A stretch of DNA of 64,000 nt, from positions 248,001 through 312,000 of the forward strand of contig CDROCS010002147.1 in the NCBI GenBank assembly GCA_977020255.1, in the 5' to 3' direction. A program made the position numbers and the translations under genes. Every line of letters begins with the position of its first letter. Positions within the stretch are counted from its first letter, which is position 1. The notes beneath the pieces were generated by a model, which searched no databases, was not told the DNA's origin, and saw only the letters and a program-made list of their open reading frames with translations. Shown here in pieces: positions 7,225 through 48,304 of the stretch. The stretch is from Obrimoposthia wandeli (lineage: Eukaryota).

Positions 7225-7312
7225 GAAACATCAGGAAGTGATAAGACTTATTTTACTCTTATACTATTAATAACAACAGATGGTACAAAGATTCCAACAA
7301 TGGTTAGTTTTT
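7225..7312 (+). mobile_element. pogo-like DDE transposase fragment
   Basis: ETSGSDKTYFTLILLITTDGTKIPTMV resembles pogo T.G.EK..FTVVL...ADGTKLPPM. Confidence 0.55.
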
Positions 7313-7959
7313 TAAAAAACTGTAAATTCCTCTTTGTTTCATCATTATTAATTCAAAACACAAAACGTTTCAATTCACATGTATTGCCACGTACAATAAA
7401 TTGTGTATGTCTCGCTTTATATAACCCAGACCACATTACACACCTACGTATGAGCGACAAGAAAGCACGTAAGAGTGCATATCATAATTCAGCCTGTCCT
7501 TGACCTATTTAAATTAATTACTGATTAGACAAATTTACTTAATCAGCGAAATATTATCGACAAAAAGCATTATCTAAGAAATAGTAGTAGAGTGTCTGCT
7601 CATCCTGAACGAAGACTGCTCGATGTGTCAGTGAATACACATTCTTTGTTCTCAAAATCAATGACTCAATGTAATTTTTTATTCAAATTTTCGTAACATA
7701 TTTTAAAACTTACATCTCTTTTAATCTCAAGTTATCATTGAAATGCAGTCTTCACCATAGGATAACCCTAACCTTCTACCTAACCAATTCTAAGGAGCAC
7801 ACCTTCAAAGTCACACATTTAAGGGACAAACACGAACTTAGTCAATAATAATCTATTTAATATATATAGGTAAATAATATTGTTAAAATCATTCTTGCAC
7901 CTCAGATGAACGTAAGTTGCAAAAAGATGCAGCTATTTAATATAAAAACATTTGGTTTA

Positions 7960-9965: not shown

Positions 9966-10959
9966 AATCAACCTAACAATAATATATAATAGTTTTTAAA
10001 AAAGTTTAGCTACCTTCTATTAAAAGTAGCCTTATTTTTCACATTTAAATTAATTTTATCTAATTTAACATAATATTTTTTAAAAATTAAATATAAATAA
10101 TGAGTACTATTTAATTATAAATTTAAGTATTATATAATTTACTATATTTAATTACATATGATTATTTACTTATAAAAATATATATAATATAAATTTCTAA
10201 ATTTTATTATGATTTACGTTCTACTTATAAAGGTAAGTATTAGATAATTACTAAAGTAAATTAGTAAATTTTATATAACTATCTTTTGATAATGGGTAAC
10301 AAAAAGAGATACAAAAAATTTCTAAGAAGTTACAAACACTTCAATATTTTAGAAGCAATTATTTGAGCCAGAATTACAAAGTGGTTGATGGGTGAACTTA
10401 AGATACACAGGAGATTTCTCCGCTTTGGTTTGAACTCCAATTCCAATATCTTATTTTTCAGAAAACTTTGTTTAAAATTCTTAAATTAAATAAATAATAT
10501 TATAACTATATGTATTTACATGTATATCTGAGTATGAAACAAATATAGTCAAGTACTGCGACAAGTAGGAGATCATCCATTCTACTTATCAGAGCAATGT
10601 CTCCTACTCTTTTCAACCTCGAATGCCTGCTTCTATGGCAATCCCTTATCTGTTCTAGCCACTCATTCCAGTCGTAGCCTATCCTGTCAAACATACTGCT
10701 AATTCTATCATAGCAGTTAGACCTTTGGATGCTACTGCACCTTCGAATACGACTACTGCTATAAGTTATGCAGCATTTACCCACAAGAGAAGTGTTATGT
10801 ATACTTCAAGTAATGCTGCTGTTTAGGTGTTTAAGAGGAAACTTTAAGGTATTTCAGTCATCGCTACTAAAACAACGTAGCTGAATTATATTCAGGGGCC
10901 AGTTAGATCGCAAATTCGTATGATCTTCTCGTCTCTAGAGCAATAGAGTACATGAATAG

Positions 10960-11680
10960 TTCTATATGCTGGCCTATCTGAAGATGGACGTCCACCTCAT
11001 GGTGGACATATTTACGGCTCCCCAGGAGAAGGATATTATTGACGATGTGCTGGAGCCGCTCAACGTCTTCACTTTTACTAGTTTAAAATATTTTATAATT
11101 TTCTTATTTTTTAATATTTTATTTAATACGAATAATAAGAATAATAGTTATTAATAATCTCTTTAGTACTTATTTAAAATAATGCTTTAAAATAAGAAAT
11201 CTTGTAGTAGTCTCTTTAGTAATTATTTTAAATATGGAACATACTTCTTAAAATCGTTTTAGTTTCATCAATTATTTCTCCTCAAAACTGGACTTACTGG
11301 ACTCGCTGCTATGCACTGATGAACCACTTCATATTCGTCCCGTCATCCCAACAGAAACTCTAATCAAGGTTGAGCTAGTGCAGGATCCAGATATGTATGC
11401 TTTCTTTCGTAAAAGCACCCGAGTGGCATCACTTTTGTCAAAATGTCCAAGGTTGACGCCATCAATGGACAAGATTTATTTTATATTGATGTAAATAATA
11501 TGTATGGTTGGTGTATGAGCCAATTTTAGCGTATGGTGGGATTGTATAGGTGACTGGTACGACTGAGTTAGAAGTTATAATTTTCGAGCTAGCTTATATT
11601 GATCTAAGCTTTATTAACTTTGCTCATATTTTGAAGACGATTTATGTGATCCAGCTGAGCTACATGATTAACTTGATAAG
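10960..11680 (+). pseudogene. Protein-primed DNA polymerase B (Polinton/Maverick-type) relic 1
   Basis: Collinear motifs: LAYLKMDVHLMVDIF (cf. YLKTDVLLLADVF), VELVQDPDMYAFFRKSTR/GGITFV (cf. ELLTD.DM..F....RGG), FYIDVNNMYGWCMSQF (cf. YLDANNLYGWAMSQ.LP), IFEDDLCDPAELHD (cf. ILEVDLEYP.ELHD). Frameshifted and interrupted by AT-rich DNA at ~11060-11280. Confidence 0.8.
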
Positions 11681-12792
11681 AGTAAAGCGGAATAAGAATA
11701 TGAAAACAAATACGGTTGAAAATACGCCACTGGAAAATTTTAAAATAAATTAAACATTTCATGTAGATTGTAATGAATATTTCGAAAAATTTAACTAATA
11801 AACTTTAAAGTCGAAAAACATGCAAAAAGATTCACACACACTTTCTCATAAGATATTTTAATGAAATTATTTTTGTTCTTTCAATTTCGCATATTCAGCA
11901 TTTTTGTTTTTAGTTAAAGCTTTCACTAATAGTTGTGAATTTTTAATTTTAGAGACACATAATATTCACTATGTATTCAATAATAAAAAGATAACTTGGT
12001 TTTGTATATGACTTTTTGAAAAATTAAAAGAGTTTTCTCAGTAGATGTCCTTTATGACAAATAAGGTCACATTATATTTTAAGGTTACTGATTTTAAATA
12101 ATTTATATTTCATGATTTTGAATAATTTGGATATTTTATGATTGGTTTAATAAATCCTTTCGTTTCTTCTTCTTAACTTTTTATTTAAATAATGAATTTT
12201 ATATTAAATTTAATAATTATTAAAGAATTTCCAGTAGTTGGGGTAGTAACCTTCAAATATGATGTAAAGTTCCTTTTGAATAATATTTTGAAAAATTAAT
12301 AGTGCACTTATTATATAGTTTATAACCATATTTATAACGTCTTTTGTTAAATACTAACGAACTTTACATAATAATTACTTATTAATGTTATTTTAACGAC
12401 TGCGTCTGCATTTAATAGACACGCAATACTTTTAAATTTTAATTTGTGAAATTTTCGGAGAGAAAACAGAAAAAGACAATTTTTGTTGAAATAATGTATT
12501 GCTCAATAGGTCTTCAAATTTGATTTGAAAATTTGCTTCCATCTAAATAAAAATTATTAAGATAAATTTAAGAATTTATTTAATAAAAATAATATTTAAT
12601 TTGTATGTTGATTTTTAGTTAACTCACAGCAGAAGTTATCAAATGTGATAAGAAGAGAATCCAAAAATATTTGAATATAATACGTATTATTTTTTTAAAA
12701 ATGTGTACCTCATTTTTCAGATTTCTAAATTAGATATTTTTCTAAAAATTTTGATTGAAATGATTACCCAGTGGCATATACGTATATATGAT

Positions 12793-13762: not shown

Positions 13763-14783
13763 TATATTATATATGTATGTTATATTAAAAAAAACTGTAA
13801 TCGCATAATAATCATAGAAATCTTAAAAAATACTACATAATATGGAAAATTAAAAAACAGTATATAAATACAACTAAACAGTTAATTTGAGAAATAAACA
13901 GGCTAAATATTGAAATATATCAATAAATTTAGTAATAAAATGTGACTGGTCTAATCATCCTTCAAATAAAACCGTGCATATGTGTGAAATAAATTATCTC
14001 TTACATGTGTGTATATATAAATCTATACATGTCCTGAGACATATATGCTCTTTTCAACTGCACAATAGTAGTTTAATGCAGTGGATGGTACAATGGTCAA
14101 GGTGGCAAACATAAATTCGAATATTAAGCGCATTTGAATTTCATTTAGAGCAATTTTGAACTGGTCCCTACAGTTCTTGGCTTACCATTAAGCTTCTGAA
14201 ATTCCCTAAATTGTCCTTACATATTCCATACCACTGCCAATAAATCCCTATATAGTATTTTTAAGTGTTGTTAAACTCCCCCTTAAAACCATAAAATACA
14301 ATTTAACTCAATTTAATACCCCTTAAAACTGAAAATCGCATAGAGAATCCCCACATGGGGAGGAAGTGCCTGAGAGGCCATCTGAGGGTGAACACGTACT
14401 CTTCGGGTCTGCCGTGGCTTGACGAGAAATATACATACAGGGTCGCGATTTTTTATCTCGCTCCCATCAAGCTTGTAAAAAAATCTGTATAACTATTTAT
14501 ATCAAGATACACTAAAAAAAATTCTATCTAAATCTCTACCCCTCCAACTACACACAGTCAACAAAATCATATCAAAATACTACGATTTTTCGAATAAAAT
14601 AATTGAAAATATTTTTATATTCAATGATTTTCTCGCACACAAATGTAGTCAAAACTTAAGAAAAGACTACGAATTTTCTAATTAGCAATTTGAATAACAC
14701 GCCCTGATTGGATGATCAAAGAGGGTTAATCTGATGTTTGTGTATATAACGAGGTATATTTTCATTATTTTTCATAAATCAAA

Positions 14784-15510
14784 ATGCATTTTTACAACAA
14801 CATATATTTGGACGAAAATATGAAGGTGGAGCTGTATGGAAATACATCTCCAGTCCTACAGCGAATACCACTACCGTCGCAGTACATTGACTTACTTAGT
14901 CAAGACTCGTCGTTGGTGAGCAAAGGAGAAAAATCAGCAAGAAGAGAAGCCCCAGCCAGAGGAGAATCATCAGCAAGAGTAGCAAGTCCAGAGCTGATGG
15001 AGCTGGACGAACCTCTCACCAGCTCGACCACGAGAAAACAATCAATGGCAGCGAGACTCCAATATATCGATCTGACTAATCAGGATTCGATTGAAAATTG
15101 TGAACACTGTACTCCTTAGCGGAATGCAGAAGCCACTGCTCATCCATCAATACCGACGAGGAAGAGGAGCAATCTCTTCGACAATTTCAAGGCTGGTATC
15201 AAACATCAATGTCAGTAAAAACTGATCACGTTGTCTCAGCCAGAGATAGTCCTCGTAACCACTCCGACGAAGAGCTCTTCAGTGATGATGTACCGTCGGA
15301 TCAGGAGAAGGACTTGACTCCATTCATCGACTAGTGGGTCAATTTCATTCCACGTTTTCTAATCAATAACAATCCTGTAGTCAGATATGACTCAATAATT
15401 GCTGAGTTAGATGATGATGAGTGGAATCTCTTCACATACGACTGGGATGCTCTTTACCATTGCTGCTACACCGACTCCGATTCAAACCGCAGACGATATG
15501 GTGTCTGAAT
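14784..15510 (+). pseudogene. Decayed acidic/Ser-rich ORF of unknown family directly upstream of pPolB relic 2
   Basis: ORF 14784-15119 continues, after a stop and frameshift, as a long acidic frame (SINTDEEEEQ..SDEELFSDD..ELDDDEWNLF). It is richer in GC than its flanks and has two QYIDL(L/T) motifs. No family recognised. Confidence 0.4.
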
Positions 15511-16393
15511 TCAGGGATTGGGCAAAATGCATACCTGTTGAATTCAAGGTGTATGCTGACTTTGAGTCAATTCTAGTATTGCATGACCAGTATGAGAGTA
15601 TTCACCTACTGGCTTCGCAGGACTATTATTCTTAGGCCCCAATATAACCCAGTACAATGAATTTTCTGGTTCAAATTGTATTTTTGATTTTATGTTAAAA
15701 TTATAGGAGTTAGGAACAACTATTGTCAACCCGTGGTATGATCTTAATGATCATCAAGCAATGATCATGACTGGCATATACTGGGTTTATTTTAATTCTA
15801 GTAGATCTTGTCTTTTCGTGTAAAACTTTAGCAGAATATGGGCTAGATCCAGTGGTGGGATTCAAACTGTTTAGCAACCGGTTCGCGCGAACCGGTGCGA
15901 ACCATTGAATCCCACGACTGTGTAAAACACTCGATATAATTTATCATTAAAATATATTTATCAATTTTACTTAAACGGTTGAACCATTGTTATATGTAGA
16001 AGGTTCATTTCACCATATTATATATACATGAAAAAATCTGTGCTCGGATTTTTTTATGTTTAAATATTAATATATTGTAGTTAAATGTTTGCTGAATTTT
16101 AATAATAGTTTCGAAATTTTGACTTTCCCATTAATATTAATATAAGAATAAATAAGAATAAATAATGCGTTCAATCAACGAATTAAAAAATTATATCTTT
16201 TTTATCCAGATGATTATGTACGTTTCAGTCGAAGAAGGTAGTCCAGGAACCGGTTCAGGCGGTTCTGCGAACTTTTATATTTTTAGGAACCGGTTCGCGC
16301 GAACCGGTGCGAACCCTTGAATCCCACCACTGGCTAGATCCCATACAATTCTTTAGTTTACCTGGTCTTTCATGGGCAACAGCAATTCGGACT
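15500..16393 (+). pseudogene. Protein-primed DNA polymerase B (Polinton/Maverick-type) relic 2, heavily deleted and split by a hAT MITE
   Basis: IPVEFKVYADFESILV (cf. P.VIYADFESIL). Removing the MITE and one TSD restores EYGLDPIQFFSLPGLSWAT (cf. YGLDP.HY.TLPGLSWDA). Confidence 0.78.
15850..16332. mobile_element. hAT-type MITE, copy 1 (483 bp)
   Basis: TIRs CAGTGGTGGGATTCAA / TTGAATCCCACCACTG. Perfect 8-bp TSD GCTAGATC (15842-15849 and 16333-16340). Non-coding. Confidence 0.95.
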
Positions 16394-16399
16394 TTATCA

Positions 16400-17290
16400 A
16401 TTTAAAAGAATGTTGTTTGGATTCAAAAATGCTCTAGCTACATATCAAAGAATTATGGATAATTTATTGAAACATGTTCCATCTACTGCGGCCTTCCTAT
16501 ATGATATTATAGTTTATTCTAATTCATTCGAAAAGCAGATCGATATACTAAATCGCGTGTTCAAAAAGTTGCAAAGCGCTAATTGAACGATCAACCCAAC
16601 CAAAATTAAGATGATGATGTTTAAAACAGAATTTTTCGGGAAATTGGTTGGGAATGGAGAATTGTCACCAATAACAGATAAAGTGTCTGTAATAAGGAAA
16701 TTATCAAAGCCAAAAACAAAACAAAAAAGTACGTTAGTTTATGGGAATGATTAACTACTATAGAGCACACATACGTAATCTAGCAATTATTGTGTCTCCC
16801 TTGAATGATTTACTTAACAAGAAAATGACTAATACTGTAAAGGGGAACAGTGAATGTGAGAAAAGTTTTATAAGATTTAAAGAATCCTTGACAACATCAC
16901 CGATATTAAAATTAACTGATCATTCTAAGCAATTTTTTATCCAGACAGATGCCTCCGATAGAGTTGTAGGCACCGCATTATCTCAATATTTTGAAGATCA
17001 ATTGCTTTCAGATCGAGAAAGTTAACGGAAACCCAACAAAGATGGTCAACCATTGAAAAATAGTTATACGCAATAATTTATTCCATTGAACAATTCCATT
17101 ATTACATTTATGGAAGGAAATTTATTCTGCAGTCAGATCATAAACCACTATCATGGTTGAAGACAAATAAACTCAAAGGGAACAAAATAGCCAGATGGAA
17201 CTTGCTATTACAAGAAATTCAAAATTCAACACAAAAAAGGAGTAGAAAACCAGAATAGTTACTTCCTAGTCGTATATGGGAAGAAACTAG
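16400..17290 (+). mobile_element. Ty3/Gypsy RT-RNaseH relic (separate family, not A/C-biased)
   Basis: MLFGFKNALATYQRIMD, MGMINYYRAHI, FFIQTDASDRVVG, QRWSTIEK*LYAI, QSDHKPLSWL, IARWNLLLQE. Stops and frameshifts present. Confidence 0.9.
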
Positions 17291-18979
17291 CCAAGAAGAA
17301 GACAATTTTGATATTAAATTAGAAATGATTAATAATATTTAATGTTCTTTTTAAGTGTTTGTTTTAATATTGAGAATTGAGTACGAAAAATATATTTGAA
17401 TTTTTAAATTACATTATCGTATTAATCTCTTGATCAAGTTTACTTATACGAAATATTTAATTGCTCCAATTCCGATCAAAATTTTTTTAAATGTAGTAGA
17501 GCTAATTTTAGAAGTTAAATATATTTCAATAGTAAATTCTATATTTAGCTTGATCTACTTTTCATACAACATTCTCATATCATCCGATAATAGAAAATAA
17601 AGAATTTTATGGATTTTACTTCTAAAAATTATCAATAAAAGTTGTCATGTTAAATAATAATATTTTTATATAATTTATGAGATTATATAATTACAGACAA
17701 ATTCACTTAAACCGGATCAATTTTTGTGCACGAAATATATTTTTCATCTTTAACTTATATTTGAAATCCGGATAAACAGGAAGGAATTTCTGTATTTTTC
17801 ATGTTTTGAAATTAACTGAAACTGATCTATTGAGATTTTTAAATTTAATCATTAAATATAGTTTTAATTTGGCAAATACAAAATCAGTTAAATAAAGTAT
17901 TTGTGTATCATATAAAAAATGTCATAAAAATGAAAGCAATTTAAGGTTAGACATATTTTTCTAACAACCTCTTTTTATATTTCTATTTTTTAGAAACTTT
18001 TTCGGGATTGGCCAAATTTAACTGACATGAATTTTTAAAAAATATAATTTAGAATGTGCAAAAGAAAATACATTTAATATGAGTTGAAGAAGTCATCAGA
18101 AATTACAGAGTACATAAAATAAATGATCAGAAAGACAAAACAAAACATGTATTCTACATTAACCATATCTGATATTTAGAAACAAAGACATGTGACCTTG
18201 CCATTGCAGATTTGCTCTCTGTAATATAGGCTAAATACAATTAATGGAAAATTTCATGTATATTTTGTACAGTTCTGACGCTAGGCCCTTATGACAGGTA
18301 TTACACAGAGAACAGTAAAATTCTAAAATTACACATTTTAAAAGTCCTCATTTAGCAATAACTTAAAAAATTCAAAAAACTTTTTATTTGTGACAAAAAC
18401 AACTCACAAAATTATATTTCTTAAAATAAAATTCAAACGTAAAATAAAATTCAACAAAATTTAAAGCAATCAACACAATGAAATTCAAAATTTTGAATTG
18501 ATAGTGGCCACTGCCTTTTAGTCAAATGAATATATCTATTTAAATATTTATTTTTATACTAACTTTTATTTTAATAGAATTTTTCGGACAGAGTGAAAGT
18601 TTTAAAGCAATTGCTATCGCACTAGTGATACTGCCACTGATTTTGTAATTTAAAGTTTTTTACTGTACAAAATTACTTTATTCGTTAGAGGCAGATTTTT
18701 TTCATGGATAAAGGTGATCCTATTTTAGCAAATTTGACTGTATAAAAAACTATAAAAACCATTTTATTCAAAGAATTATTAAAGTTATTAGAGCAGATTA
18801 GTAAAGTAGATTATACCCTATATTTTTATGTATCTACAAATAATTATTTTAAAGCATTATGACAAATTTATATGACATAATTAAAATACAAATATAGAAT
18901 ATTCATTCATATTATATTATATCTAAAATCACTATTACTTATTTAATATATTACATATTTTTAAAATGTATTAAACAAA

Positions 18980-23711: not shown

Positions 23712-26084
23712 TTAATAGTGTATAAAACAATGAATTACATCAACTGTAATATTAGTATTAATAATTTATTTAGTAAAAAAACTATATCTAAAATAAATTT
23801 TTGAAATTTTGTTCGAAATAAGTTTAAAAATAACACAAAAATAGTTCATATAGAAAAACAAAATCAAACTACAGGATAACCGTGAACTGAAATGATTGTA
23901 ATAGTATATCTTGTATATTATATATTAATAACATGCAATATATAGCTTAATAATAATATAAATCAAAAGTAAAACAATGACAATTAAACATCATTAACAT
24001 ATTAATAACCCTTTAGTTTAAGAATTTCAAAACTTCTTCGTAGCATGCTTCGAAAAAGATTATAAATAATTTATAACAAACACTTGTAGAATAATCGAAT
24101 GGATAATGCGTCACATAGCCTCCAAGCAGTGTAGAAATATACGAGAAGAGGTAGCGCCTCTGAAAAGCGGCGAATTGATGGCGAGTCTTTGCGTCAAAGT
24201 TGATGACAGCGTTGTCAGTGTACGGTATCTAGCGGCGATGGAAACCTTGTTGAGCCCCGATGATGTCGCAGCCTTCGGTCAGCTAATTTGATCGGGCATT
24301 CCGAGTCAAATCACAATGAGTCAGAGTCTATGTTAGCATAGTCGTTGATCCCAGCTCGATTCGGAAGCTTGTTTGAGTTGTTAATGCAGCCGGTTACACT
24401 TGTTGTCGGCCGGAGTGGATTGCGGTGCATTGCTGGATGGGTTGCTACCTAGAAATAGTTGAGACAACCTCGAATTGGAAGTCGCATCACCGTCATCCAA
24501 CGATATTGACAAAAATCAGTCAGAAGAGCTGGCCTCGGCGGACTCAGTCACGTCGAGTTCATCAAAATGGAGAACGACACGGTCAACAATACTAATTGTT
24601 TGTTTCGATTGTCGCAATGAGCAACACTTGTAGAATATTCGAAAAGATTAAAGACACACGACGCATCTTTGTACTTCAAAAATATACTGCATAATTTACT
24701 TCTATTTTTTATGTACTGAACACACGCTAAATTTTTTATAACTTATGTATTAAATACATTCATTGACAAACCCTACTGCAGCTCCAGGATCCGCTAAATA
24801 ATTGTTGAACAATTAATTTTTCGATATTTAAATCAATAAATTGTCAGTATGTTTGATAATTTTTTGATATTTCAAAATTGTTCAGTTTTCCGAAATGATT
24901 TTGCTTTAGTGCTTCATTCTAAGAGTGTTTAAAAATAAGATATAATTACTTTAAAAGTTTTCCTGAATATATAATTAAATAATTAACTAAATAAAATTTT
25001 CTATGAATACTTTATTAAATAAACGTAATTTTCTCAAATAATAATGATATATCTTTGATAAAAGTCTATATAAACTTATTTAAAAAAATTTATAATGTTT
25101 GATTTGTTCATTATATTACTATAGTATGATAGATTAATTTAACAGTTTCTTCGTGTTAAGATAAACATTATTAGAAATATAATATATTAGAAAACTTACA
25201 TAATAATGCATTTTCTCCAAATTTCAATGAAATGGAAAAAAAAATCAAAAAGAAAATATTACATTTCATATTGCTAAAAAAGTTCAAATTCAAAATTGTT
25301 ACTACACAGAACAATCTGGAAATTTTGTAAAAAAATTTAAATTTATTTCTTAAATTAGCATAAAGTTATGAACAACTTTGTTAACAAACATTTGAAAAAA
25401 ATTTGAATTTAACTAACAAGGGAATAATCCCAAATGTATATAAAGTATAATTTTTATCAGTCTATCTGCTAAATATTTGTAATAAGTGAGAAAATTGTAC
25501 ATAAACGAGTAAATTAATTTTTAAATGATCTTAAATAGTCCAAAATTCAAACAAAGCTAGATTTGAAAGAATTATTTTCTACAATTATTCATGCAAGTTA
25601 TACTAATATGATAAGATGTACTACGATTTTCACACAAATAAATATACAGTTAATAATATTAATTATTTATAAATTTTTTGAAGTTCAAATTAATCTTTGT
25701 AACATTTACTTATTTAACAAATATTAAAACCTTTAAAATAGTTTATAATGGCTTACAACTTAAATAAAGATATCATTTGAAATATTACAAACAAGATTTA
25801 GAGTAATCTTTATTGTAATTCTGATTTTCAAAAATGTATAATTCTATTTTTAGAACTGTGTCAATTAGGTGATTAATATAATAATATTTGTGTGTACAAT
25901 GCAGTTCTTTCCAAAAAATGTCGCCTAATCTTTCCCCAATATAGGCAGTGCGGAAACTGCACGAATTCAACTGCACAAACAGTGCGAATTCATAATTTGC
26001 TTCCAGTCAGCAGGAGAATTGGGTAGATAGGAAAAAGATCCTGTATATAAATTGTATTAACAGACATACGCTCGAGACAGATTG

Positions 26085-26722
26085 TGTGTGAGTGAGTGAA
26101 TAGAGAGTGAGTGAGCGAGTGAGTAGAGAGAGTCAGTAGTGAGCGAACAGGAAGAGTGAGTAGTGAGCGAGTAGGAAGAGTGAGTGAGCGAGTGAGTAGG
26201 GAGAGTGAGTGAGCAATGGAGTAGGAAGAGTGACTGAGCAATGAGAGTGTGTGTGGGATTGAGTGAATAGGGAGAGTGAGTGAGCGAGTGAGTAGGAAGA
26301 GTCAGTAGTGAGCGAACAGGAAGAGTGAGTAGTGAGCGAGTAGGAAGAGTGAGTGAGCGAGTGAGTAGGGAGAGTGAGTGAGCAATGGAGTAGGAAGAGT
26401 GACTGAGCAATGAGAGTGTGTGTGGGAGTGAGTGAATAGGGAGAGTGAGTATGCAATTGAACAGAGTGAGTGAGTGAGCAACTTTATAGGGAGAGTGAGT
26501 GAGCGAGTGAATAAGGAGAGTGAGTGAGCAATGGAGTAGGAAGAGTGACTGAGCAATGAGAGTGTGTGTGGGAGTGAGTGAATAGTGAGAGTGAGTAAGC
26601 AATTGAACAGAGTGATTAAGTGAGCGACTTTATAGGGAGAGTGAGTGAGCGAGTGAATAAGGAGAGTGAGTGAGCGAGTGAATAAGGAGAGTGAGTGAGC
26701 GAGTGAATAAGGAGAGTGAGTA
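26085..26722. repeat. Purine-rich (GAGT-based) minisatellite with higher-order units
   Basis: Built of GAGT/GAGC/GAGTAGG units. AGTCAG landmarks at 26131 and 26300 give a 169-bp period; GACTGAGCAATGAG occurs at 26232, 26401 and 26547. Ends with three 25-bp units (26641, 26666, 26691). Confidence 0.95.
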
Positions 26723-27863
26723 AATCTTTATTTATTTTCAAAACTTACTGGATTAAAAAACTATATCCAAGGATTATTTACCAATAATCAAACAATGGTA
26801 TAAAAGTCGTTTTTTCTGATTATCATTTAATTCAGACGACATTGAAATTAAAATCAATTTCGCTTTAGGTACCAGTAATGTTTCAAAATGTTTTTTTATC
26901 TTCACAAACTTATTTCCTACAATCCTGTTACTTAATATATTAAAAAACTTTTATATTACTGATATTAATTTTAGCTTAATTGAATAAAACAGATTAAATA
27001 TAAAATTAATGTTTTATATACATTGTGTAAAGAGATTGTGCAGCAAGCAAGTATGTAAAAATAGAAACTATATGAAACGTTGCAACCTCCAGAGAAAGAG
27101 ATTTTAATATCACTTTAATGGTCAGAATTAAATGATAATAACAAATAAACGACTTTTATAAAATTTATTTGTGGTTAATTCTTTAATAAATGTTTCTTAG
27201 AAATTCAGAAAGTTTTGAAAAAAATGTAATAATTTTATATTATCATTATTTATTTATTTTTTAATTCTACTAAATATAAACGTTATATAAATTTAAGTCG
27301 TATTTATCATTTTTTTGCATGTATTTTTAAATTAATTGCTTTAGTTTTTTAAATTGGTTGATAAAAAATATTAAGAAAATTTTGTAACTTTAAAGTTGTT
27401 TTAATTTTTTGTTAGCGAAATTCAAATTATATGCCCATTGTAGTCCTAGCCATGATTTTGTTAATCTTTATCGATAAAACAGCTGTTAAATTCAGTTAAT
27501 TTCGCTTATTTTGCTAACCTACATGTTTATAAATGTTATTCTTTTAAAATATAAACTATTGAGTATTTGTAAGTAAACTATTGTATTAAATATTATATTT
27601 TATTATATTTAATTTTATATAATGCTAAAATTTCATATAATAAATAGGTAAATTATTAAAATTATGCTATTATTTTATAAGTTAAAAAACTTTTTTTATA
27701 TTGTAATTATTTTGTTATTTTTAAATAATATTTCTATATATTTCTTATCTAATAATTAGGATTAAAACTTTTATATTTAGAAATAAAAAAGCAGCTGTAA
27801 TCGCCATTTTTTGCAAATTGCGTTTTTTATTGTTTATGAGGGCAATTTTCGACTAATGCCCAA

Positions 27864-28004
27864 TGTAGTATGGCCGCAGTTGAAGGAATTTATAAGATAA
27901 CCATAAGATAATGAAGTATTGTTTTTTTAATCAATCCTAATTATTATAAACCATAAATACATATTAACAACCATACAACACGCAAATACATACTGCACAC
28001 TACA
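27864..28004 (-). repeat. 3' LTR (141 bp) of the deleted Gypsy element
   Basis: TG...CA on the minus strand. By hand alignment about 20 mismatches plus one 8-nt gap versus 31017-31149. Confidence 0.85.
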
Positions 28005-29544
28005 CCAACTTCCACTTTTTGGTGTATCATGAAAGCTGATGACCATGGTGAGTTGGATTTTTGTATAATGCCTTGTTTATCTAATTCTTTGAATGTTTGT
28101 CTGGTAGGAATTGTTTTACTTTGATGGAACATGATCTCCGTTTGTTAATTATTTTATGTGTAGTTGTGTTTTTTCTATGTGTGCGATGTTAGTGGGGTAG
28201 TTTTTTGATTGTTCGGGAATATTAGGGTTTTATTTTTGTAATCTATCACTATGTTGTAGTGTGCTAGGATATCGGAGCCTAGTATTGCTTGTTGGAATTT
28301 GGTGGTGGTGAAAAACCATTTGTATGGTTTTTGTTAGGTATGATCGTGATTTCTGTCTCACCATATGTGGGAATGTTAGTGCCGTTTGCTGCGTAAAGTT
28401 GGTTGAGTGGCGTATGTTGTGTATCATATGAGAGGTTTGATATCAATGATCAGCTTTATTTAGAGTGTATTGTGTTGTGTGGTAATGAGTTTCTATGATA
28501 TGGAGAGGACTCTGTGTTAGTTGTTATTGAATTGGGTCTGTCCATTCTGTATGGTGAGTTGTAATAGTTTGTTATTTGCTTCAAGTGTGTCTTGTAGTGA
28601 TTGTATCGTTTTGTTTTGATTGTTTTGATTGTTTATGATGGTTTCTAAACTGTTGTCTTTGTTGTGGTTGTGCTGTTTGTTTTTTCTGTGGACGTGTTCA
28701 CTAGTATCTTGTATTCTATCAGCTATGTCGGTTAGTATTTGGAGGTTGTCGATGTTTGTTGCTGCGAGTATTTTTTGTTGTTGTTTCGCTAAGTAGGCTT
28801 TTCATGAAGCATTCTGTTATCAGACTATTGTTTGATGATGTGTTTGGTTGAATGATATATTGTTTGTTTTGTAGATTCTATAGTGTCTCTGATGGCTTGT
28901 TCAGGGTGCTTGTATCAGTTGTGTTAATATGTGTTGTTTGTTTATTTTGTAGTGTTTTGTTAGGATGGTGATTATGTTTTATGTTTATATATTTTTATGG
29001 CTGATTGGGTTTTTGGCTGTGTTTATGTTGTCTAGTTCATCTGTGGTTTGTCTGAGGGTGTTGTTTGGTAATGCTGATATTATATTCTTTGTAAATGTCT
29101 TGGATGATATGTTTGGAAATAGATTAATCTGTTTGAATCAGTTTTAACTATTTTAGTGATGTATTGTTGTTTTCTAAGAAAAAAATTGGAGATATCTGGA
29201 TAGTAAGTAGATTTGTGACTTCTGGAACAAAGACCCCCGTGCTGAGGACAAAATGTGTTAGTTCTACTGTTTAGGTGACTCATCGATGACTCATCGAACA
29301 AAGACCATGATTCGTCGATGACTCATATTCGTTGTTCTCATAAAGTACACTTGACTCCTCACCAAGTTCTAATAAAGCCTATTATATATAACTTTGAAAA
29401 GTAAAAAAATACATTTTTTGAAGGTTTGGACCCTTGAGGGTTAACTCTTGAAGGTTTTAGACCCTTTGAGAGAACCCTATTGGAATAACCATATTAAAAA
29501 ACAGCGAAAAAAAAACCAACTCGAAGAATCAGCAATAAGAAGTA

Positions 29545-29650
29545 CCTTAAAAGAAGCAACTCAAATAACTTCCTTAAAATAAGCTACTCAAAGAACTCCC
29601 TTAAAAGAAGCAACTCAAATAACTTCCTTAAAATAAACAGCTCAAAGAAA
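29545..29650. repeat. Internal tandem repeat (2 x ~54 bp made of ~27-bp subunits)
   Basis: CTTAAAAGAAGCAACTCAAATAACTTCCTTAAAATAA occurs twice, alternating with ..CTCAAAGAA.. subunits. Confidence 0.85.
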
Positions 29651-30149
29651 TACAATCAAGAGTGAGTAACCATGTGCTCATAGTCTTTGTTTTGAAAGAC
29701 TCATGTTCTCAACATGTGAAAAGAAATATTTCAAAAAGAACAAAACACATCACGTGTTCTTATATTGCACATTTTCATCACATCTGTGTGAGTGTGTGAT
29801 TTTCTCTTCCCTACCGCATACTCCAATACAAGGCAGAGACAATCTCTGCCTGTATTTGAGAATGTGTGCGGTAATGACGGCAGATGATGAAATAATCACA
29901 TCACTCTGCCGCTGGATGGATTTATGCTGCAGTATTTAGTTAAGTTTTTATTTATTTTTATTCTGCTGCTGTGACAATCTTGAGTAAATTTTATTTTTAT
30001 TGATTTAATTTCAATATATGTTTGAAAAACACAATAGAAGAACAAATAACTATTAATTGTTGTCCTTCTATTGTGTTTTTCAAACATTATTGGAGTAAAC
30101 ATCCTATGTGTTTTATACCTTTTAGCTGTTATGATTATGTCTTTCAAGA

Positions 30150-30675
30150 CAAAGGCATGAGCTCATAGTCGGCACTTGGGCTCATGACCTAGACCATAAC
30201 CTTGAGCTCATGGTGAGTACATTGGCTCAAGTGATGAGTATACTATAAAAGAATGTGAGCTTGATATCATGATAACCTTATGATAACCTTGGGCTCATGG
30301 TGAGCACATGAGCTCATGATCTTATAATAACCTTGAGCTCATAGTCAGCACATGAGCTCATAACCTCGTAATAACCTTGAGTTCATGGTAAGCACATAGG
30401 CTCACTTGATGAGTGCACTATAGAACAAAGGACATGAGTCATGACCTTGAGCTCACGTGATGAGTCTAATAAAACAAAGGACATGAGTCATGACCTTGGA
30501 ATGACCTTGAAAATCAGGTGTACTCGGGAGAAATGTGTCCTTAACATGACCTCAAATTACCTTGACCTCATGTGACCTCATGAGGTTACGTGATGAGTCA
30601 TGTGTACTTTAGGAGAACAAAAGATGTGAGTCATCGATGAGTCATGTCTTTCTTCGATGAGTCATCGATGAGTCA
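30150..30675. repeat. Degenerate tandem array rich in TGAGCTCA and TGAGTCA motifs
   Basis: Six exact TGAGCTCA (30158, 30203, 30309, 30334, 30353, 30448) and seven exact TGAGTCA (30435, 30484, 30594, 30627, 30638, 30658, 30669), set in recurring TAACCTTGAGCTCAT..GCACATGAGCTCA units. Confidence 0.9.
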
Positions 30676-31001
30676 CCTAAAAAGTAGAACAAATACATTT
30701 TGTCCTCTGCTTTTTTCCAGAAGTCACCCATCTACCTACTCTGGATGATTGTGTGTTGTTGTTATGTTATCTGTTGGTTCCATTTGTGTAGGATAGTTGA
30801 TATGGTGAGATAACAGACCTCTTTGGACTGAAAATTGTAGTACTTTGGGTGTTGGAGGAGGTCGGGTGGCTTCACACACTGGATGTGGCGATGCTGATGG
30901 CAGTAACCTGTGGGTGAGATTGACGATGTTGGTGATGCTGGTTGCTGCAGGCTGAGGCAAAACTGGATATTGTTGTTATCTATAGGAGTAGGTGGTTTAT
31001 T

Positions 31002-31013
31002 CTTCTGACACCA
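31002..31013 (-). promoter_or_regulatory. Primer-binding site (tRNA-Leu type)
   Basis: Minus strand TGGTGTCAGAAG, 3 nt from the LTR end; identical to the PBS at 33807. Confidence 0.85.
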
Positions 31014-31016
31014 AAT

Positions 31017-31149
31017 TTTAGTATGGCGGAAGTTGAGGGAATTAATAAGATAGTCACAAGATAACCATTTATTGATCAATCCTAATTATTATAAACCATA
31101 ATAACATAATAACAACCATACAGCACGCACATACATATTGTACACCACA
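31017..31149 (-). repeat. 5' LTR (133 bp) of the deleted Gypsy element
   Basis: Starts TGTGGTG on the minus strand, homologous to 27864-28004, followed by the PBS. Confidence 0.85.
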
Positions 31150-33621: not shown

Positions 33622-33804
33622 TGTTGTGACCCTATCCTTCCTTTTCTCTCATTATCTTGTGTGTTTCTTTGTTTTTATTATCATGTTATTGTAAGTATAA
33701 TAATATATTAGAAAAATCAATAAATCGTTATCTAGTTATTTTGTTCGTATCTCTCCTCATTCTTCTCTCTACAATTTTTCTATCTCTCACGAAGGCCTCC
33801 TACA
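33622..33804 (+). repeat. 5' LTR
   Basis: TGTTGTGACC...CCTCCTACA; 178/183 identical to the 3' LTR; contains AATAAA. Confidence 0.98.
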
Positions 33805-33806
33805 AT

Positions 33807-33819
33807 TGGTGTCAGAAGT
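33807..33819 (+). promoter_or_regulatory. Primer-binding site complementary to the tRNA-Leu 3' end
   Basis: TGGTGTCAGAAGT, 2 nt after the LTR; reverse complement of ...ACTTCTGACACCA, the 3' end of eukaryotic tRNA-Leu(CAA). Confidence 0.9.
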
Positions 33820-34568
33820 CCTCAATATATATTCAATATATCGATACATTCAGAAGAAGAACCAACTCATCCAAGAACTACATTCAATTCAACAACAACC
33901 ACTGCCAATCCAACAACCTCATCTCCTTCTCGTTCTTCTGTTTTACTACTCTACAATACCCTCTACGACACCCTCGATACCCTCTAGAAACAGAGACAGC
34001 AGCAACCTGATCATAATCATCATCATCAGAATTTCAGAAACAATTACTACTCTGTCGCTCACAATCTACGAGATTCTGCTACAACAATCACCACCACAAC
34101 TACGGAGCCACGCTATAGGGGCTAAACTACTCCAACTCACATCCTACAGGTCACAATTAAGAGCGAAGATATCAGCGAAACAATCCTAATAACCACAATT
34201 CCAAGTTCACAAATTCAACAATACACTACTCTACTTAACTCTACAAACCGTCGGGAGTAAGAAAACTGTGACTGCAGAAACCAGCATCACCAACATCACC
34301 ATTCTAATTCTTTACTATGTCAGCCGGATATCGGTAAGCAGCAACAGCAGCACCAAAACTACCAACTACTCAGCCGCGCTAGAGAAACTCAATCAAACTC
34401 AATCCACAAAGAAACATATATTGAATTATCAAGTTAGTCACCCGCTCTCAGACAAACACTGATCCTACAAGTCCTGCTCCAACCCCAGACAACAAAGTGT
34501 TATCACTGGGGCCACAAAATAACTTCCGTGTTTTCATAACCACAGTCACAACATAACCGATCGCATAA

Positions 34569-35474
34569 ATGGCACACAACACACCATCCACACCAGAGTT
34601 TTTCCTGGACGAAAATCAGAGCCCTAATAAATGGTTATCACTCACTCAAACAATCTTAAATTTGCCGGGGACTCACAACCCGAAACACATCACTCACAAA
34701 ATCATCTCATCACTACCCACCAACACACTCAATGACATTGCACAGGATCTCATCGACATTCACAAACACACTTCACCTCTAGATCAGATCAAAAACATTC
34801 TAAACCAACACTACACCATAAATAAAAAGGAGTTATTTGAAGACTTATTTAACTCACCTATCACTTTCACATAAAAACCCACCCATCTCTTAAACACATT
34901 GAAGACTAAACTGGAACACATTCAACCCAACATCATAAATTACACTCACAACTCATTACTCCAAGAAGTCTTTTTCCTACAACTACCCCCAGACACAAAA
35001 AAATACTTACAACGTTGGAAAACAAATCATTAGAAGAACTGGCCACAACAGCAGACAAACTACATGCATACAACCAACCCACCTCACAACAAACATTACA
35101 CATACAAAGAAACCCAACAAACCAAAACGAGTCAGAAATAGACAATTTAAAAATGATCATACACCAACAGAACCAAACAATAACATCACTGACAGAAAAG
35201 ATTGACAAACTTACAACGACCTATACACAACACACCACCAACAGACACAGATCATAATCATCAAATTACGACAACAAACAACAACATACCACAAACAGAT
35301 ACTGATCACCATCACCATATTACGACAATAAACCACAATACACTTATAACAGATACAGATCACCCTAACCATACAATAACAATAAACTACCCAATCCAAA
35401 CTACTGCTATTACCACAATACATACGGCACCAAAGCCATCAAATGCACCTTGCACATACCCAAAAAACTGCTAA
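34569..35474 (+). pseudogene. gag: gag (disrupted)
   Basis: ATG at 34569; in-frame TAA at 34872 in FT*KPTHLL. EVFFLQLPP / SLEELATTADKL span a frameshift near 35010. RS-rich repeats and C-terminal YCYYHNTYGTKAIKC (CxYH..FG.KA.KC knuckle of this Gypsy clade). Confidence 0.9.
35240..35390 (+). repeat. Three ~54-bp repeats in the gag C-terminus
   Basis: ACAGA(C/T)AC(A/T)GATCA recurs at ~35241, ~35295 and ~35349, encoding NR(H/Y)RS..S.Y repeats in the gag frame, with stops at probable Arg/Ser codons. Confidence 0.8.
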
Positions 35475-35479
35475 AATCA

Positions 35480-38398
35480 ACAGTAAGCGCACCAATTACC
35501 GTTGATTGCTTCAAAATATTCACGGTGCACTCACAAATCAACAACATTCATTTCCTCATAGACACTGGCTCTTCAGTTTATATAATACCACACACCATCA
35601 CGCCAATACCTAGACAACGCACCACACCTACCACACTCATGGCAGCGAACCACACACCAATAAAACTTTCGGTACGACTAACCTAACAATAACCTTAGAC
35701 AACATCCTCTACAAATAGGATTTTGTCATAGCAGACATAATACAGCCAATCATCGGAGCTGACTTTCTACCCAATTTCAACCTAATCATCGACTGCAAAA
35801 ATAAAACACTAATACGAAACAAAACATCAACACATACAAACCTCCACACCCATACCACAAACTGGAAAACACATAACCAAAACGTATTAGGCACAATATA
35901 TACAAAAACAGACGCGACAAACACACTACAATCAACTATACCACTCCAAAAACAAAACAACTTCACTCACAAAATCATTACAAACGGACGACCATGTCAC
36001 GCCAAAGTAAGGCAACTTCCACCTAATAAGCTAGCAGTCGCAAAAGACACATTCATTAAGTTAGAAAAAAATGCATTATTCAAAAGTCCGACTCACCTTG
36101 GTCATCAGCTCTCATGATGCAACAAAAAAAGGATCAAACATGGAGATGCTGCGGAGACTACCGAATGTTGAATGCTATGACAACACCAGACTCGTATCCA
36201 CTTCCACTCATAAAAGACATCACCACACGCCTAATTCATGCGACAATCTTCAGTAAAATAGATCTCACATCAGCTTACCACAACATTCCTATGCACACAG
36301 AGGACATCAACAAAACAGCAATCATTACACCATTCGGACTCTGCGAATACATCAAAATGCCATTCGGTCTAAAAATTTCCGCCGCCACGTTCCAAAGGTT
36401 CATGGATCACATATTCACAAACACGAACAACATTGTAACGTACATAGACGACGTCCTAATAAGAAGCGACAACCACGCCAACCACATCAAAGACATTCAA
36501 AAAGTAAAAGAAATACTAAAAAACCACAACCTCGAGATCAACACCAAAAAATGCCTTTATCATCAAACACAAGTAGAGTTCCTTGGACATACCATATCAC
36601 ATAACCAAATCAAACCTCTACCAAACAAGACAAACACGATAAACAACATGCCAATACCAACCACGGCTAAAAAAATCAGAAGCTTCCTAGGAATGGTGGA
36701 TTTTTACCACAGACACATACCTAACTGCGCAGGAACACTAGCCCCTCTACACGACTTAATCAAAAACACGCACAAACAAGCAAAGATCACACTAACCAAC
36801 ATCGACATAAAAAAATTCAATACAGCCAAACAAGTACTTACAGACGCTACAACCTTAAATTTCCCATTTCCAAACGCGCCACTTACGCTCACCACAGACA
36901 CTTCAAATCACGCAATAGGAGCAGTTTTAAATCAAATAACAGAAACCACACCACAACCAATCGCATTCTTCTCAAAGAAACTGAAAATACACCAGACTAA
37001 ATACTCAACATACGAGAGAGAATTACTGGCCATATACGAAGCAATAAAATACTTCGAAACACATCTAGAAGGCAACACTTTCACAATTTACACGGATCAT
37101 AAACCCCTTCTACAAATCATCACCATGAAAACACCCTCGCCACGCCAAATCAGACAGATCAACTACATCTCGCAATTCAATTGTACTCTCAAACACATCG
37201 CTGGAAACACAAACATCGTAGCAGACACACTCTCACGCATACCTCAAAACAACAACGTCATAACGCAAAATATATTTCTCGGACGCGGACATCAGACACA
37301 AACATGACATATCCGAATTCACTCGAGGAAACTTACATCTCACTAAAACAAACGACATATGGTACGAAACCACTACTCCCGGTTTAACTAGAGTCATACT
37401 CCCAAAAAACGACATGCATAAAACACATCCATGATTTCCATCATCCCAGCATAAAAGCAATATTTGACATAATCAAACAAACTTACATATGGCCATGCAT
37501 GTGCAAAGACATCCAAATATTCGTTAAACAATGCATCAAATGTAACAACAACAAATCACAAAAACATTACAAAACAATTCCATTCACCGTCACTAGCAAA
37601 AACGCATTCCACACAATTCACATTGATCTCGTCAGACCATTACCTTCAAACAACTCGTTCACACATCTCCTGACAATAATAGACAACAACACAAGCTGGT
37701 TTTCCGCCATACCCATCAAAGACACATCATCAACATATATATGGAACAAAATATACAAACATTGGTTCATCACATACGGTTTCCCTTCAAAAATAATCAC
37801 AGATCAGGGACGGCAATTCATCAGCAAAACATTCAATGACTGCTGCAACAATAAAAACATCAAACACACAACCACGACCACATACAACCCACAATCAAAT
37901 AGCAAAATAGAACGACTATACCGCCAAATTAAGGAAAGTTTGACATGCTTCGACAACCCAAAGAATTGGTAACACAATTTTCACAACTGCATCATGGGTC
38001 TCAGAAACACCCCTCACCTATGGGACAACAAAAGTCCCGTACATCGAATATTCAAAGCACACGTACCACGCATATACAATAAACACGACACGCAAACAAA
38101 CACACAGATGAAACCCAAATCTATCACAACACACTCACACGCATACATAAAAATACACAACCATCACTCACTAGACCCAAAATACCAGGGTCCATACACC
38201 ATCATCCGACACAACACCAACAATACAACGCTCATTAACAGAAACCAAAAGCCAACGCTCATCAATAACAGAAATTTGAAAATCACCCACCCTGAGAAAC
38301 ACAAAAACCTACCACAAACACACAAACACAAGACAGTCAAATTCACCACAGTAACACGTCCGACAAACATCACTCATTCCATAACTCCGTTATCTTAG
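35480..38398 (+). pseudogene. pol: pol (protease-RT-RNaseH-integrase), frameshifted
   Basis: PR: FLIDTGSS, IIGADFL. RT: WRCCGDYRMLN, YIDD. RH: TTDTSNHAIGAVL, YERELLAI, YTDHKPL, ADTLSR. IN: HH..CIKC, IHIDLVRPLP, ITDQGRQF, YNPQSNSKIER. RT-RH (36114-37307) is still one open frame. Confidence 0.95.
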
Positions 38399-38409
38399 AG
38401 AGGAAGTTA
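38397..38409 (+). promoter_or_regulatory. Polypurine tract
   Basis: AGAGAGGAAG(TTA) immediately before the 3' LTR. Confidence 0.85.
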
Positions 38410-38592
38410 TGTTGTGACCCTATCCTTCCTTTTCCATCATTATCTTGTGTGTTTCTTTGTTTTTATTATCATGTTATTGTAAGTATAATAATAATTTAGA
38501 AAAATCAATAAATCGTTATCTAGTTATTTTGTTCGTATCTCTCCTCATTCTTCCCTCTACAATTTTTCTATCTCTCACGAAGGCCTCCTACA
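38410..38592 (+). repeat. 3' LTR
   Basis: Same 183-bp sequence, followed by TSD ATTAC. Confidence 0.98.
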
Positions 38593-39581
38593 ATTACGTA
38601 ATAAATAAATTAAGGTACGTAAAAATATACAATAAGTAAAGAAATATCGGAATTAAAATGCACAATAACTTTTTCTAATGTCGAAAATTTATCGATTTAT
38701 GATTTTTTTTGCCTGAGTTTATCGAACATTCTTTTTATAAAAATCAACAAATTTCCCCTAACTTATCTTTGTGAATAACCTTTTTCTATATGTCATGTGC
38801 TGCTAATGTGGAAGGATTATGATTTTTTTTGAAATCTAAGCTAAATAAAGATTGAGAAAAGTATTTGTATCATTAATTAATAAAAAGAAGTAAAAATATG
38901 TTGTCAAGATAATTTAGGAGCATTCAGTGAAGAACATGGGAGTTGCAATATGATGACTGATTTCTAATGAGGTTTGAAACGAGGTGTTTACCAATTTAAC
39001 TGCAACTGACAATCAAAAAGATTTTCTTTTACTAATTAATGTTTGTATATTTTAAAATATATATATTGTATAAATAGTTTGAGGGCAATTCGTGAGAATA
39101 GTAGATGTGACAGATATTGATAAGTGGTTTTATTCAGTCAGCCTAAAAGTAGATCTAGATACTCCTATTTTTTAAATAACTGAATATTTTCCATTTTATT
39201 GTTGAATGCTACATACAAAATTATGTAAATGAAAAAATTATTTATATTTTTCTAATTGTACCACGTTTCGAAATGAAACTTTTGACAGTTTATTTTCAAC
39301 ACTACGGAAAAGAAGCAGCAATGTAGAATTGAAGGTGATATTTATCAAATGTGACGTTTACAAGTAGTATTTTCTTTCATTTATATCCATAATTATAAAT
39401 AGATTTAATGACTATTTCGATGCAAAGAATTTTCTTTGGCTAATTATTTCATTGAAAAAAAATTCTATCTGATATTATTGTGGGGAATATTGATAAATTG
39501 CTGCCCATTTATTAAACTTCTACTCGAAATTTTGTCACAATTACATTTAGACTTAGTTTATTATATATAGATAGATATACA

Positions 39582-39984
39582 CAGTGGTGGGATTCAAACT
39601 GTTTAGGAACCGGTTCGCGCGAACCGGTGCGAACCCTTGAATCCCACCACTGATTATATAACAGTATCATTATATATACATGAAAAAATCTGTGCTCGGA
39701 TTTTTTTATGTTTAAATATTAATATATTGTAGTTAAATGTTTGCTGAATTTTAATAATAGTTTCGAAATTTTGACTTTCCCATTAATATTAATATAAGAA
39801 TAAATAAGAATAAATAATGCGTTCAATCAACGAATTAAAAAATTATATCTTTTTTATCCAGATGATTATGTACGTTTCAGTCGAAGAAGGTAGTCCAGGA
39901 ACCGGTTCAGGCGGTTCTGCAAACTTTTATATTTTTAGGAACCGGTTCGCGCGAACCGGTGCGAACCCTTGAATCCCACCACTG
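39582..39984. mobile_element. hAT-type MITE, copy 2 (403 bp)
   Basis: Same TIRs as copy 1. Perfect 8-bp TSD GATATACA (39574-39581 and 39985-39992). The last ~310 bp are nearly identical to 16020-16332. Confidence 0.95.
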
Positions 39985-47529: not shown

Positions 47530-48304
47530 ACTTTAATAATATTTATCTCAAAATGTGCTCTGGCAGTAGTCTACTATCATATTTTTCTCTTATCACTATT
47601 TGATGTTTTGATGGAAGCGCTCTGTTGGTTCATCATTTACAGTCTCGTGGTTCTCGTGACTATTCATGAAATGGAGCTTGAAAAAAAATACATGGCTTTA
47701 TTAAATATGATAATAATTCAATATGACAATGCTCGACCCCATATCTATGATAATAACAAATCTCTTAATATTTAAATGAGGCAAAAGAAGACAAATCTTT
47801 GAATGTTGCATATATTTTGCCGTATTTAAACGTTTATTTGAAATGAGTAAATAGCGCTCATGTCGAAAATATGAATCCGTTAACAACCAAGGGCAAAAGT
47901 GAGATATTTAATCAGTTACTGAAACAGGTAAAGGACATATTTGAAAATAAGATCCACATGATAAAAGTAGAAAAAACCTTAGAAATGAATCATTCTCTAC
48001 TTGTTTTTGGAGAGGATAATACATTTTGTTATTTCTTTGATAGAAGATATTTATTAAATAGTTTTCCCAATATTTTGTTAGTATTTCTCTTCGTAGGGAT
48101 TTTGTTCTAAGAACTTTAACTTCATAAACAAAGAAGCAGAAATTATTTAGCAAGATTTTAAATGAAATTGAATTATAACCGATGAAGTTAAAGTTCATAG
48201 AACAAAATCCCGACGAAAAGAAATACTAACAAAATATTGGGCAAACTATTTAATAAATATCTTCTATCAAAGAAATAACAAAATGTATTATCCTCTCCAA
48301 AAAC
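47530..48304 (-). mobile_element. DNA transposase remnant, probably CMC/Chapaev-type, with a fold-back at its 5' part
   Basis: Minus strand: LLLPHLNIKRFV (cf. LLPPLHIKLG), VNDEPTERFHQNIK (cf. VSDEQGERFHQDI), MIVDYC (cf. MLADYC). Same motif family as 6480-6860. Confidence 0.55.
48003..48304. repeat. Inverted repeat: 123-bp arms, 56-bp spacer
   Basis: 48003-48125 and 48182-48304 are reverse complements with 4 mismatches. No TSD. Confidence 0.95.

Follow-up and report, generated by a model that had tools for sequence, protein, structure and literature searches.

Polintons, or Mavericks, are self-synthesising, virus-like DNA transposons of 13-25 kb (PMC8097293, PMC6431247, PMC8969392). A 6-bp target site duplication (TSD) is characteristic of them (PMC10045372) and occurs together with AG ends (PMC6839031), and in vertebrate Mavericks the terminal inverted repeats (TIRs) span 46-1447 bp and carry the terminal motifs (AGT)2, which is the commonest, (AG)3 or (AC)3A (PMC8097293). 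In the cycle proposed for Polintons, the protein-primed polymerase pPolB starts at a short terminal repeat and copies a TIR-paired single strand (PMC4196379). Here we describe two small, gene-less elements, element 1 and element 2, in a 64,000-nt stretch of the Obrimoposthia wandeli assembly GCA_977020255.1 (contig CDROCS010002147.1, positions 248,001 to 312,000), hereafter the window. Both are probably non-autonomous Polintons/Mavericks of the size of MITEs (miniature inverted-repeat transposable elements). Element 1 is an old copy of a large, very high-copy non-coding family with fixed ends.

The plus strand of element 1 opens with AGTAAGTAG and the minus strand with AGTAGGTAG (in longer readings, AGTAAGTAGAT and AGTAGGTAGAT); CTGGAT lies immediately outside each, and the alignment of its TIRs comprises 133 identities, 18 mismatches and 10 gap columns. 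The coordinates, this alignment and a scan of shifted boundaries bore out what an earlier note, made from the letters of this DNA, had described as AGTA...TACT ends, imperfect TIRs of about 150 bp and an exact CTGGAT TSD. The scan gave an exact 6-bp TSD with AGT...ACT ends and a single alternative, a 7-bp repeat in which the last T is moved to the flank and the ends become asymmetric. Equal 6-mers were obtained in 140 of 200,000 draws of random flank pairs within the window, and an exact 6-bp flank repeat accompanied only two of the 66 AG...CT pairs in the window with at least 16/20 inverted identity, namely elements 1 and 2.

Further support for the boundaries came from contig comparison at 80% likeness, based on four non-independent runs of one sample of one study, which is probably the source of the window. 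Contigs at 28941-29290 and 30680-31104 span both junctions with no differences, and loose contig ends start exactly at 29202 (among those listed, nine contigs in run X3); the poor agreement of these ends (0.48) is as expected, because flanks differ between copies. A joint from 29177 to 30740, which skips element 1, was found in 4/4 runs (depth 517 in run X1); it comes from diverged Gypsy copies and does not discriminate between a 6- and a 7-bp TSD. It is very improbable that the TSD is truly 7 bp long, which would place the element in a group with 7-bp TSDs, or that the boundaries arose as an artefact of assembly. Formally, element 1 does admit a flank repeat of 7 bp, and the resumption of the skipping joint at 30740 is neutral on the matter, but the 7-bp reading requires asymmetric ends, element 2 permits 6 bp only, and the contigs cross both junctions unchanged.

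The element 1 target is a dead, internally deleted Gypsy element, whose long terminal repeat (LTR)-like repeats (27866-28004 and 31019-31149) share 112 identities with 19 mismatches. Compared alone, the left flank of element 1 matches, at E 1e-10, the open reading frame (ORF) that stands in gag position in the window's second Gypsy, and element 1 is inserted among the first ten or so gag codons; the 16-residue gag piece itself was too short for BLASTP. The earlier claim that removing the element restores gag holds locally, in that the flank is a gag homologue interrupted in its first codons, but the gag match elsewhere shifts among three frames and contains stops, and the gene is therefore dead with or without element 1. 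The contig ends and the skipping joint are better support for the boundaries than the restoration of gag.

Element 1 is without coding capacity, as had been claimed. Its longest stop-free frame is 89 residues; its two frames of at least 62 residues had no Pfam match (150 of the 156 such frames in the window were run), Rfam returned no match, and no tblastn match fell within it from 525 ORFs of the 79 related metagenome loci described below. The pPolB, integrase, ATPase, protease and capsid genes and the 13-25 kb of an autonomous Polinton/Maverick are absent from it. In structure it has the features of a MITE, being short, non-coding, TIR-bounded, TSD-flanked and high-copy, although at 1.5 kb it would be a long one. 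Contigs showed extra subterminal repeat units in other copies, and the motifs that recur within and next to the TIRs probably serve to bind proteins of the helper or the host. The left TIR folded no better than its shuffles (z 0.15). TGA(C/G)TCA sites, which we take to be AP-1-like, number 10 in element 1 (29276-30675; seven of them within the TIRs) and nine in the remaining 62,461 nt; 1000 shuffles gave a mean of 0.2 and a maximum of 3.

The abundance of the family was estimated from summed contig depth, which is not copy number and is inflated by overlapping short contigs. In run X1, 12 bins across element 1 (29188-30675) had summed depths of 104,847-531,769, with single positions down to 242; the interior of the Gypsy reached 767-2,579, and most long contigs taken singly had 41-54. 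Element 1 thus stands about 100-fold above its host Gypsy, a step that was repeated in the other three runs, and division of its summed depth by 44 gives 2,400-12,000. The flanks at its left end vary among contigs. The family therefore probably comprises thousands of copies across the full length of the element, not of the TIRs alone.

Element 2 shares the ends of element 1. Its TIRs of about 155 bp align with 146 identities and 5 mismatches and, like the 151-161-bp TIRs of element 1, fall inside the vertebrate Maverick range. Relative to the first 11 nt of element 1, the ends of element 2 have one difference from the right end and two from the left; outside element 1, 3 of 124,470 positions lie within three mismatches of the first 16 nt of its right end, and two of these are the ends of element 2. 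All four ends of the two elements begin with AGTA, so that both have AGT...ACT termini, and the terminal hexamer is AGTAGG at three ends and AGTAAG at one. In neither element does a C or T precede AGT at both ends. Repbase places non-autonomous elements in one superfamily when their TSDs are equal in length and at most one of 11 nt is mismatched (PMC4455052), and sequence comparison brings the two ends of element 2 and the right one of element 1 within this rule. Each element 2 TIR (53470-53625 and 53757-53910) also forms an almost perfect hairpin, about 110 bp in length, the fold of the left one having a z of -14.9 against 200 shuffles.

The earlier note had regarded these ends and the TSD as hallmarks of Polintons. 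The 6-bp TSD, AG...CT termini and long TIRs all stood, but the 6-bp TSDs of hAT6 and of IS3EU/GingerRoot had been overlooked. We consider a non-autonomous IS3EU/GingerRoot or Ginger element highly unlikely. IS3EU/GingerRoot does combine 6-bp TSDs with TIRs, but its ends are TA..TA or, rarely, TG..CA (PMC10045372, PMC6839031), whereas AGT...ACT was seen at 4/4 ends here and no shift of the element 1 boundaries by up to 4 nt at either end yielded TA..TA or TG..CA together with a TSD. Ginger1/2 elements have TGT ends and 4-5-bp TSDs (PMC2836005).

Polinton gene remnants lie in the same window and indicate, from their sequence, that Polintons were once resident in this genome. The main pPolB remnant is matched by ORFs of related metagenome loci at 15596-15811 and 16334-16441, on either side of the hAT-like MITE that splits it, and such ORFs match the integrase remnant at 17412-17486 on the opposite strand. 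The second Polinton remnant consists of a TBP-like ORF (56139-56419), a RING fragment (57195-57359) and an ATPase fragment (57687-57899), the last of which matches Pox_A32-type ATPases of about 210 residues (best 1e-24). Of 739 ATPase matches, 35 were aligned with the window fragment, and a search with this alignment led to 79 metagenome loci; in viral contigs, the alignment confirmed none of 17 candidate stretches. The long metagenome loci encode an A32-type ATPase, an rve-chromo integrase, a double-jelly-roll-like capsid protein (feature score 0.97) and a 1150-1230-residue ORF with ExoI, PolA, PolB and PolC motifs, and this combination of integrase, capsid protein and polymerase motifs identifies them as Polintons. 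For the polymerase ORF of locus L016, identity as pPolB rests on these four motifs; the ORF had no sequence match in PDB, and Pfam gave Endonuclease_7 only. A TBP-like protein is encoded upstream of the ATPase in related metagenome Polintons (L009:1147-1632 and L017:382-726; Pfam TBP E 7e-18 and 4e-12), and it is this protein that the window ORF at 56139-56419 matches. About 880 bp past the ATPase remnant, a GC-richer stretch (58700-58825, minus strand) ends in canonical AGTAGT; no partner end was seen for it in the window, and it may be the right end of a second dead Polinton.

The mini-element ends are linked to these genes by a decayed homologue of the element 2 TIR that is in register at AGTA and begins at 13931. 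When anchored at AGT, this segment scored 43 against the element 2 TIR, as compared with a mean of -29.6 (standard deviation 9.8, maximum 9) at 1936 other AGT sites; among 440 tiles (mean 18.7, standard deviation 3.2), it again scored 43, and the next best score elsewhere was 29. The segment is oriented into the remnant of pPolB, with 1621 nt separating it from the ExoI motif downstream. In the metagenome Polinton L016 the pPolB gene is outermost and inward-pointing, with 547 + 906 = 1453 nt between the end of the locus and the ExoI motif. The layout is that expected of the left end of a dead Polinton, and the segment is probably such an end. The argument is therefore a chain, in which elements 1 and 2 are joined by their ends and the length of their TSDs, and about 135 bp in common join element 2 to a probable Polinton end. 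Two other likenesses were discarded: a 25-nt one between 14440-14464 and the inner end of the element 2 TIR, whose score of 26 was within the 22-29 of other matches, and a 13-nt exact match to the element 2 terminus at 57299-57311, which falls within RING-like coding sequence, is not followed by a TIR and was treated as chance.

Table 1. Positions of the mini-elements, their target and the Polinton-related sequences in the window.
Feature	Position	Strand	Description or evidence
Element 1	29202-30740		Non-coding TIR element, 1539 bp, very high-copy family; ends, TSD and contigs
Left TSD copy of element 1	29196-29201		CTGGAT; abuts element 1
Right TSD copy of element 1	30741-30746		CTGGAT; abuts element 1
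Left TIR of element 1	29202-29362	+	161 bp, with repeated TGACTCATCGA units
Right TIR of element 1	30590-30740	-	151 bp
Tandem array of element 1	29537-29653	+	27/54-bp units; extra related units near 29361-29375 and 29498 in other copies; contig loose ends
Internal hairpin of element 1	30018-30087		28-bp arms
Subterminal repeats of element 1	30158-30498	+	44/49-bp units, number differing between copies; joints stepping back 38-85 nt
Host Gypsy element	27866-31149	-	Internally deleted, dead; LTR-like repeats and gag homology
Element 2	53470-53910		Non-coding, 441 bp; ends AGTAGGTGGATG on both sides
TSD of element 2	53464-53469 and 53911-53916		TATATT, exact, unambiguous 6 bp
Homologue of element 2 TIR	13931-14065	+	Decayed, in register from AGTA onwards; candidate for the left end of an autonomous, now dead Polinton
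pPolB remnant	15411-16441	+	Decayed; ExoI motif at 15552; split by hAT-like MITE 15850-16332; runs into Gypsy reverse transcriptase fragments
Further pPolB remnant	10963-11523	+	Separate from the above
Integrase remnant	17412-17493	-	Short; matches Polinton integrases; faces the pPolB remnant
Second Polinton remnant	56139-57946	+	TBP-like, RING and Pox_A32-type packaging ATPase fragments

A different helper would be required if the elements were MITEs of a DDE cut-and-paste transposon with 6-bp TSDs, either hAT6 or some unnamed lineage whose ends are AG...CT, and if the nearby Polinton remnants were coincidental in a repeat-rich genome. We regard this as unlikely. The ends of hAT elements are of the CA/TA type, and hAT6 was compared by this general end type; elements 1 and 2 instead have AGT on both sides, not preceded by a C or T at both ends. 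The window contains a hAT-like MITE of its own that serves as a control, with CAGTGG ends and 8-bp TSDs in 2/2 copies (15850-16332 and 39582-39984; 99% alike over 320 bp, the first being the one inside the pPolB remnant), and the location of the element 2 TIR homologue upstream of pPolB also argues against a DDE helper. The very high copy number of element 1 and its short subterminal repeat arrays, which are typical of MITEs, fit such a transposon, as does the finding that element 1 had no direct match to the Polinton sequences compared.

Several observations weigh against the assignment of elements 1 and 2 to Polintons. Families of hAT6 with 6-bp TSDs are found among animal hATs (PMC12730594), and two TSDs are all that were seen for the ends described here (6 bp in 2/2 elements). 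Beyond their terminal 16 nt or so the two elements are unrelated, and past its first 16 nt or so element 1 matched none of the Polintons compared. Their hexamers AGTAGG and AGTAAG are none of the three published motifs, all of which are from vertebrates (AGTAGG agrees with (AGT)2 at 5/6 letters), and the perfect short terminal repeat proposed to serve protein priming (PMC4196379) is therefore present only in part. The segment at 13931 had no inverted partner TIR or TSD in the window, has none of positions 5-9 in common with element 2, and could be a piece of a mini-element that strayed there; the right arm of element 2 scored 31 against it without anchoring, not above its shuffled controls (mean 29; maximum of 40, 38). 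The element 1 TIR does not match the segment (anchored scores 4 and -10; null mean -16, standard deviation 9), and the link from element 1 to Polinton genes therefore takes two steps, via element 2. Neither element matched any of the 79 metagenome Polinton loci at E < 0.1, and none of these loci shares the ends (there was one single-mismatch motif match; of the 11 longer loci checked, none had terminal TIRs). A 25-nt TIR pattern had no match in metagenome contigs, and in viral contigs none was obtained with a degenerate pattern of 22 nt from the ends. Polintons, moreover, are often low-copy, and the Anolis genome has fewer than 10, none of them non-autonomous (PMC3014272). The abundance reported here comes from four runs of one sample and from summed depth rather than copy number. 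Finally, the claim of the earlier note that element 1 is a MITE-sized Polinton satellite gained a second element with matching ends and a 6-bp TSD, Polinton gene remnants and a decayed TIR near pPolB, but no intact helper or full-length Polinton with the element 1 TIR was found in the window or the metagenome loci.

As non-autonomous Polintons, elements 1 and 2 would belong to a type of gene-less DNA transposon family that relies on Polinton/Maverick enzymes in trans for its movement and has retained only its cis signals, the AGT-initiated ends and TIRs of about 150 bp. The retroviral-type integrase of the helper would produce the 6-bp staggered insertion. More tentatively, the protein-primed polymerase of the helper would multiply the copies, starting on an excised strand with paired TIRs at its AGT ends, in the way proposed for full-length Polintons; given the Polinton assignment, we lean towards protein-primed copying of the passengers by pPolB. 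Within the same assignment, the ends may instead be Polinton-derived but moved by the integrase in a cut-and-paste manner, without protein-primed copying, as in Ginger transposons, which have a related integrase and no polymerase (PMC2836005). The imperfect terminal tandem repeat in AGTAGG is in favour of integrase-only movement, which nevertheless appears the less likely of the two routes; both families have retained long TIRs, which would suit a TIR-paired single-strand template (PMC4196379).

The remainder of the window, which has a GC content near 30%, contains several other features. An uninterrupted 298-codon exon at 2-895 (plus strand) encodes a divergent, flatworm-type PKA catalytic subunit; among its named full-length matches, proteins of parasitic flatworms are the most similar (78% and 73%), and a longer tick protein ranks higher by score at 59%. 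The host is thus a flatworm and, given the GC content, likely a planarian-like one. A nearly complete Gypsy element occupies 33622-38595 (plus strand), with 97% identical LTRs and broken gag and pol frames, and a further decayed Gypsy relative lies near 7994-9775. Two palindromic stretches of 300-500 bp that lack an obvious TSD lie at 48003-48304 (86% self-complementary) and 26732-27224 (69%), and the second is preceded by a purine-rich tandem array of the GTGA type (26083-26722) with higher-order periods of 71, 146 and 169 bp.

Polinton movement has so far been proposed from sequence alone. If the assignment is correct, passengers of 441 bp and 1.5 kb that share little beyond their terminal 16 nt or so would define the minimal cis signal, and both genome size and capsid genes would be dispensable in cis. 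Many copies would allow counts of target preference, tests of replicative against cut-and-paste movement and a search for free intermediates. If the helper is a DDE transposase, the elements would represent an unclassified 6-bp-TSD lineage with AG...CT ends. For annotation, a Maverick expansion has been described in Dugesia genomes (bioRxiv 10.64898/2025.12.11.693146), and such flatworm expansions may partly consist of passengers of this kind. A broader proposal, which we put forward as speculative and somewhat unlikely as a whole, is that Polintons have full MITEs: a virus-like helper present in few copies, whose AGTAGG end motif lacks the perfect terminal repeat, would have its integrase and protein-primed polymerase exploited by two or more mini-families that are unrelated to each other (0.44 and 1.5 kb), one of them probably numbering thousands of copies. 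They might form much of the planarian expansion, and the larger family would spread clusters of ten TGA(C/G)TCA sites in a probably regenerating animal.

MITE-sized Polinton satellites were not found in the titles and abstract openings of the literature searched, although Repbase or supplements may already list such families, and an exact-phrase search returned one paper, which applies the term to Tlr1 (PMC5499653). The novelty lies in the small size, the apparent abundance, the occurrence of two families with one end motif and the non-canonical terminal hexamer; gene-less Polintons as an idea are not new. Kapitonov and Jurka in 2006 and the "Polinton-N" entries of Repbase reportedly describe gene-less elements with Polinton ends and a 6-bp TSD, to which elements 1 and 2 are likened by their ends and TSD.

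With their AG...CT ends, elements 1 and 2 are unlike the MITEs of IS3EU/GingerRoot, which end in TA..TA or TG..CA, and those of hAT6, for which we assume the CA/TA-type ends of hATs. A 6-bp TSD, TIRs and the existence of small non-autonomous forms are shared with both (PMC12730594, PMC10045372, PMC6839031). Polintons/Mavericks share with elements 1 and 2 the 6-bp TSD, AG...CT ends starting with AGT, TIRs of 150-160 bp and gene remnants in the same window, and differ from these gene-less elements of 1.5 and 0.44 kb in length, in the AGTAGG ends and in the far higher apparent abundance seen here. Element 1 behaves as a MITE and probably belongs among the non-autonomous Polintons.

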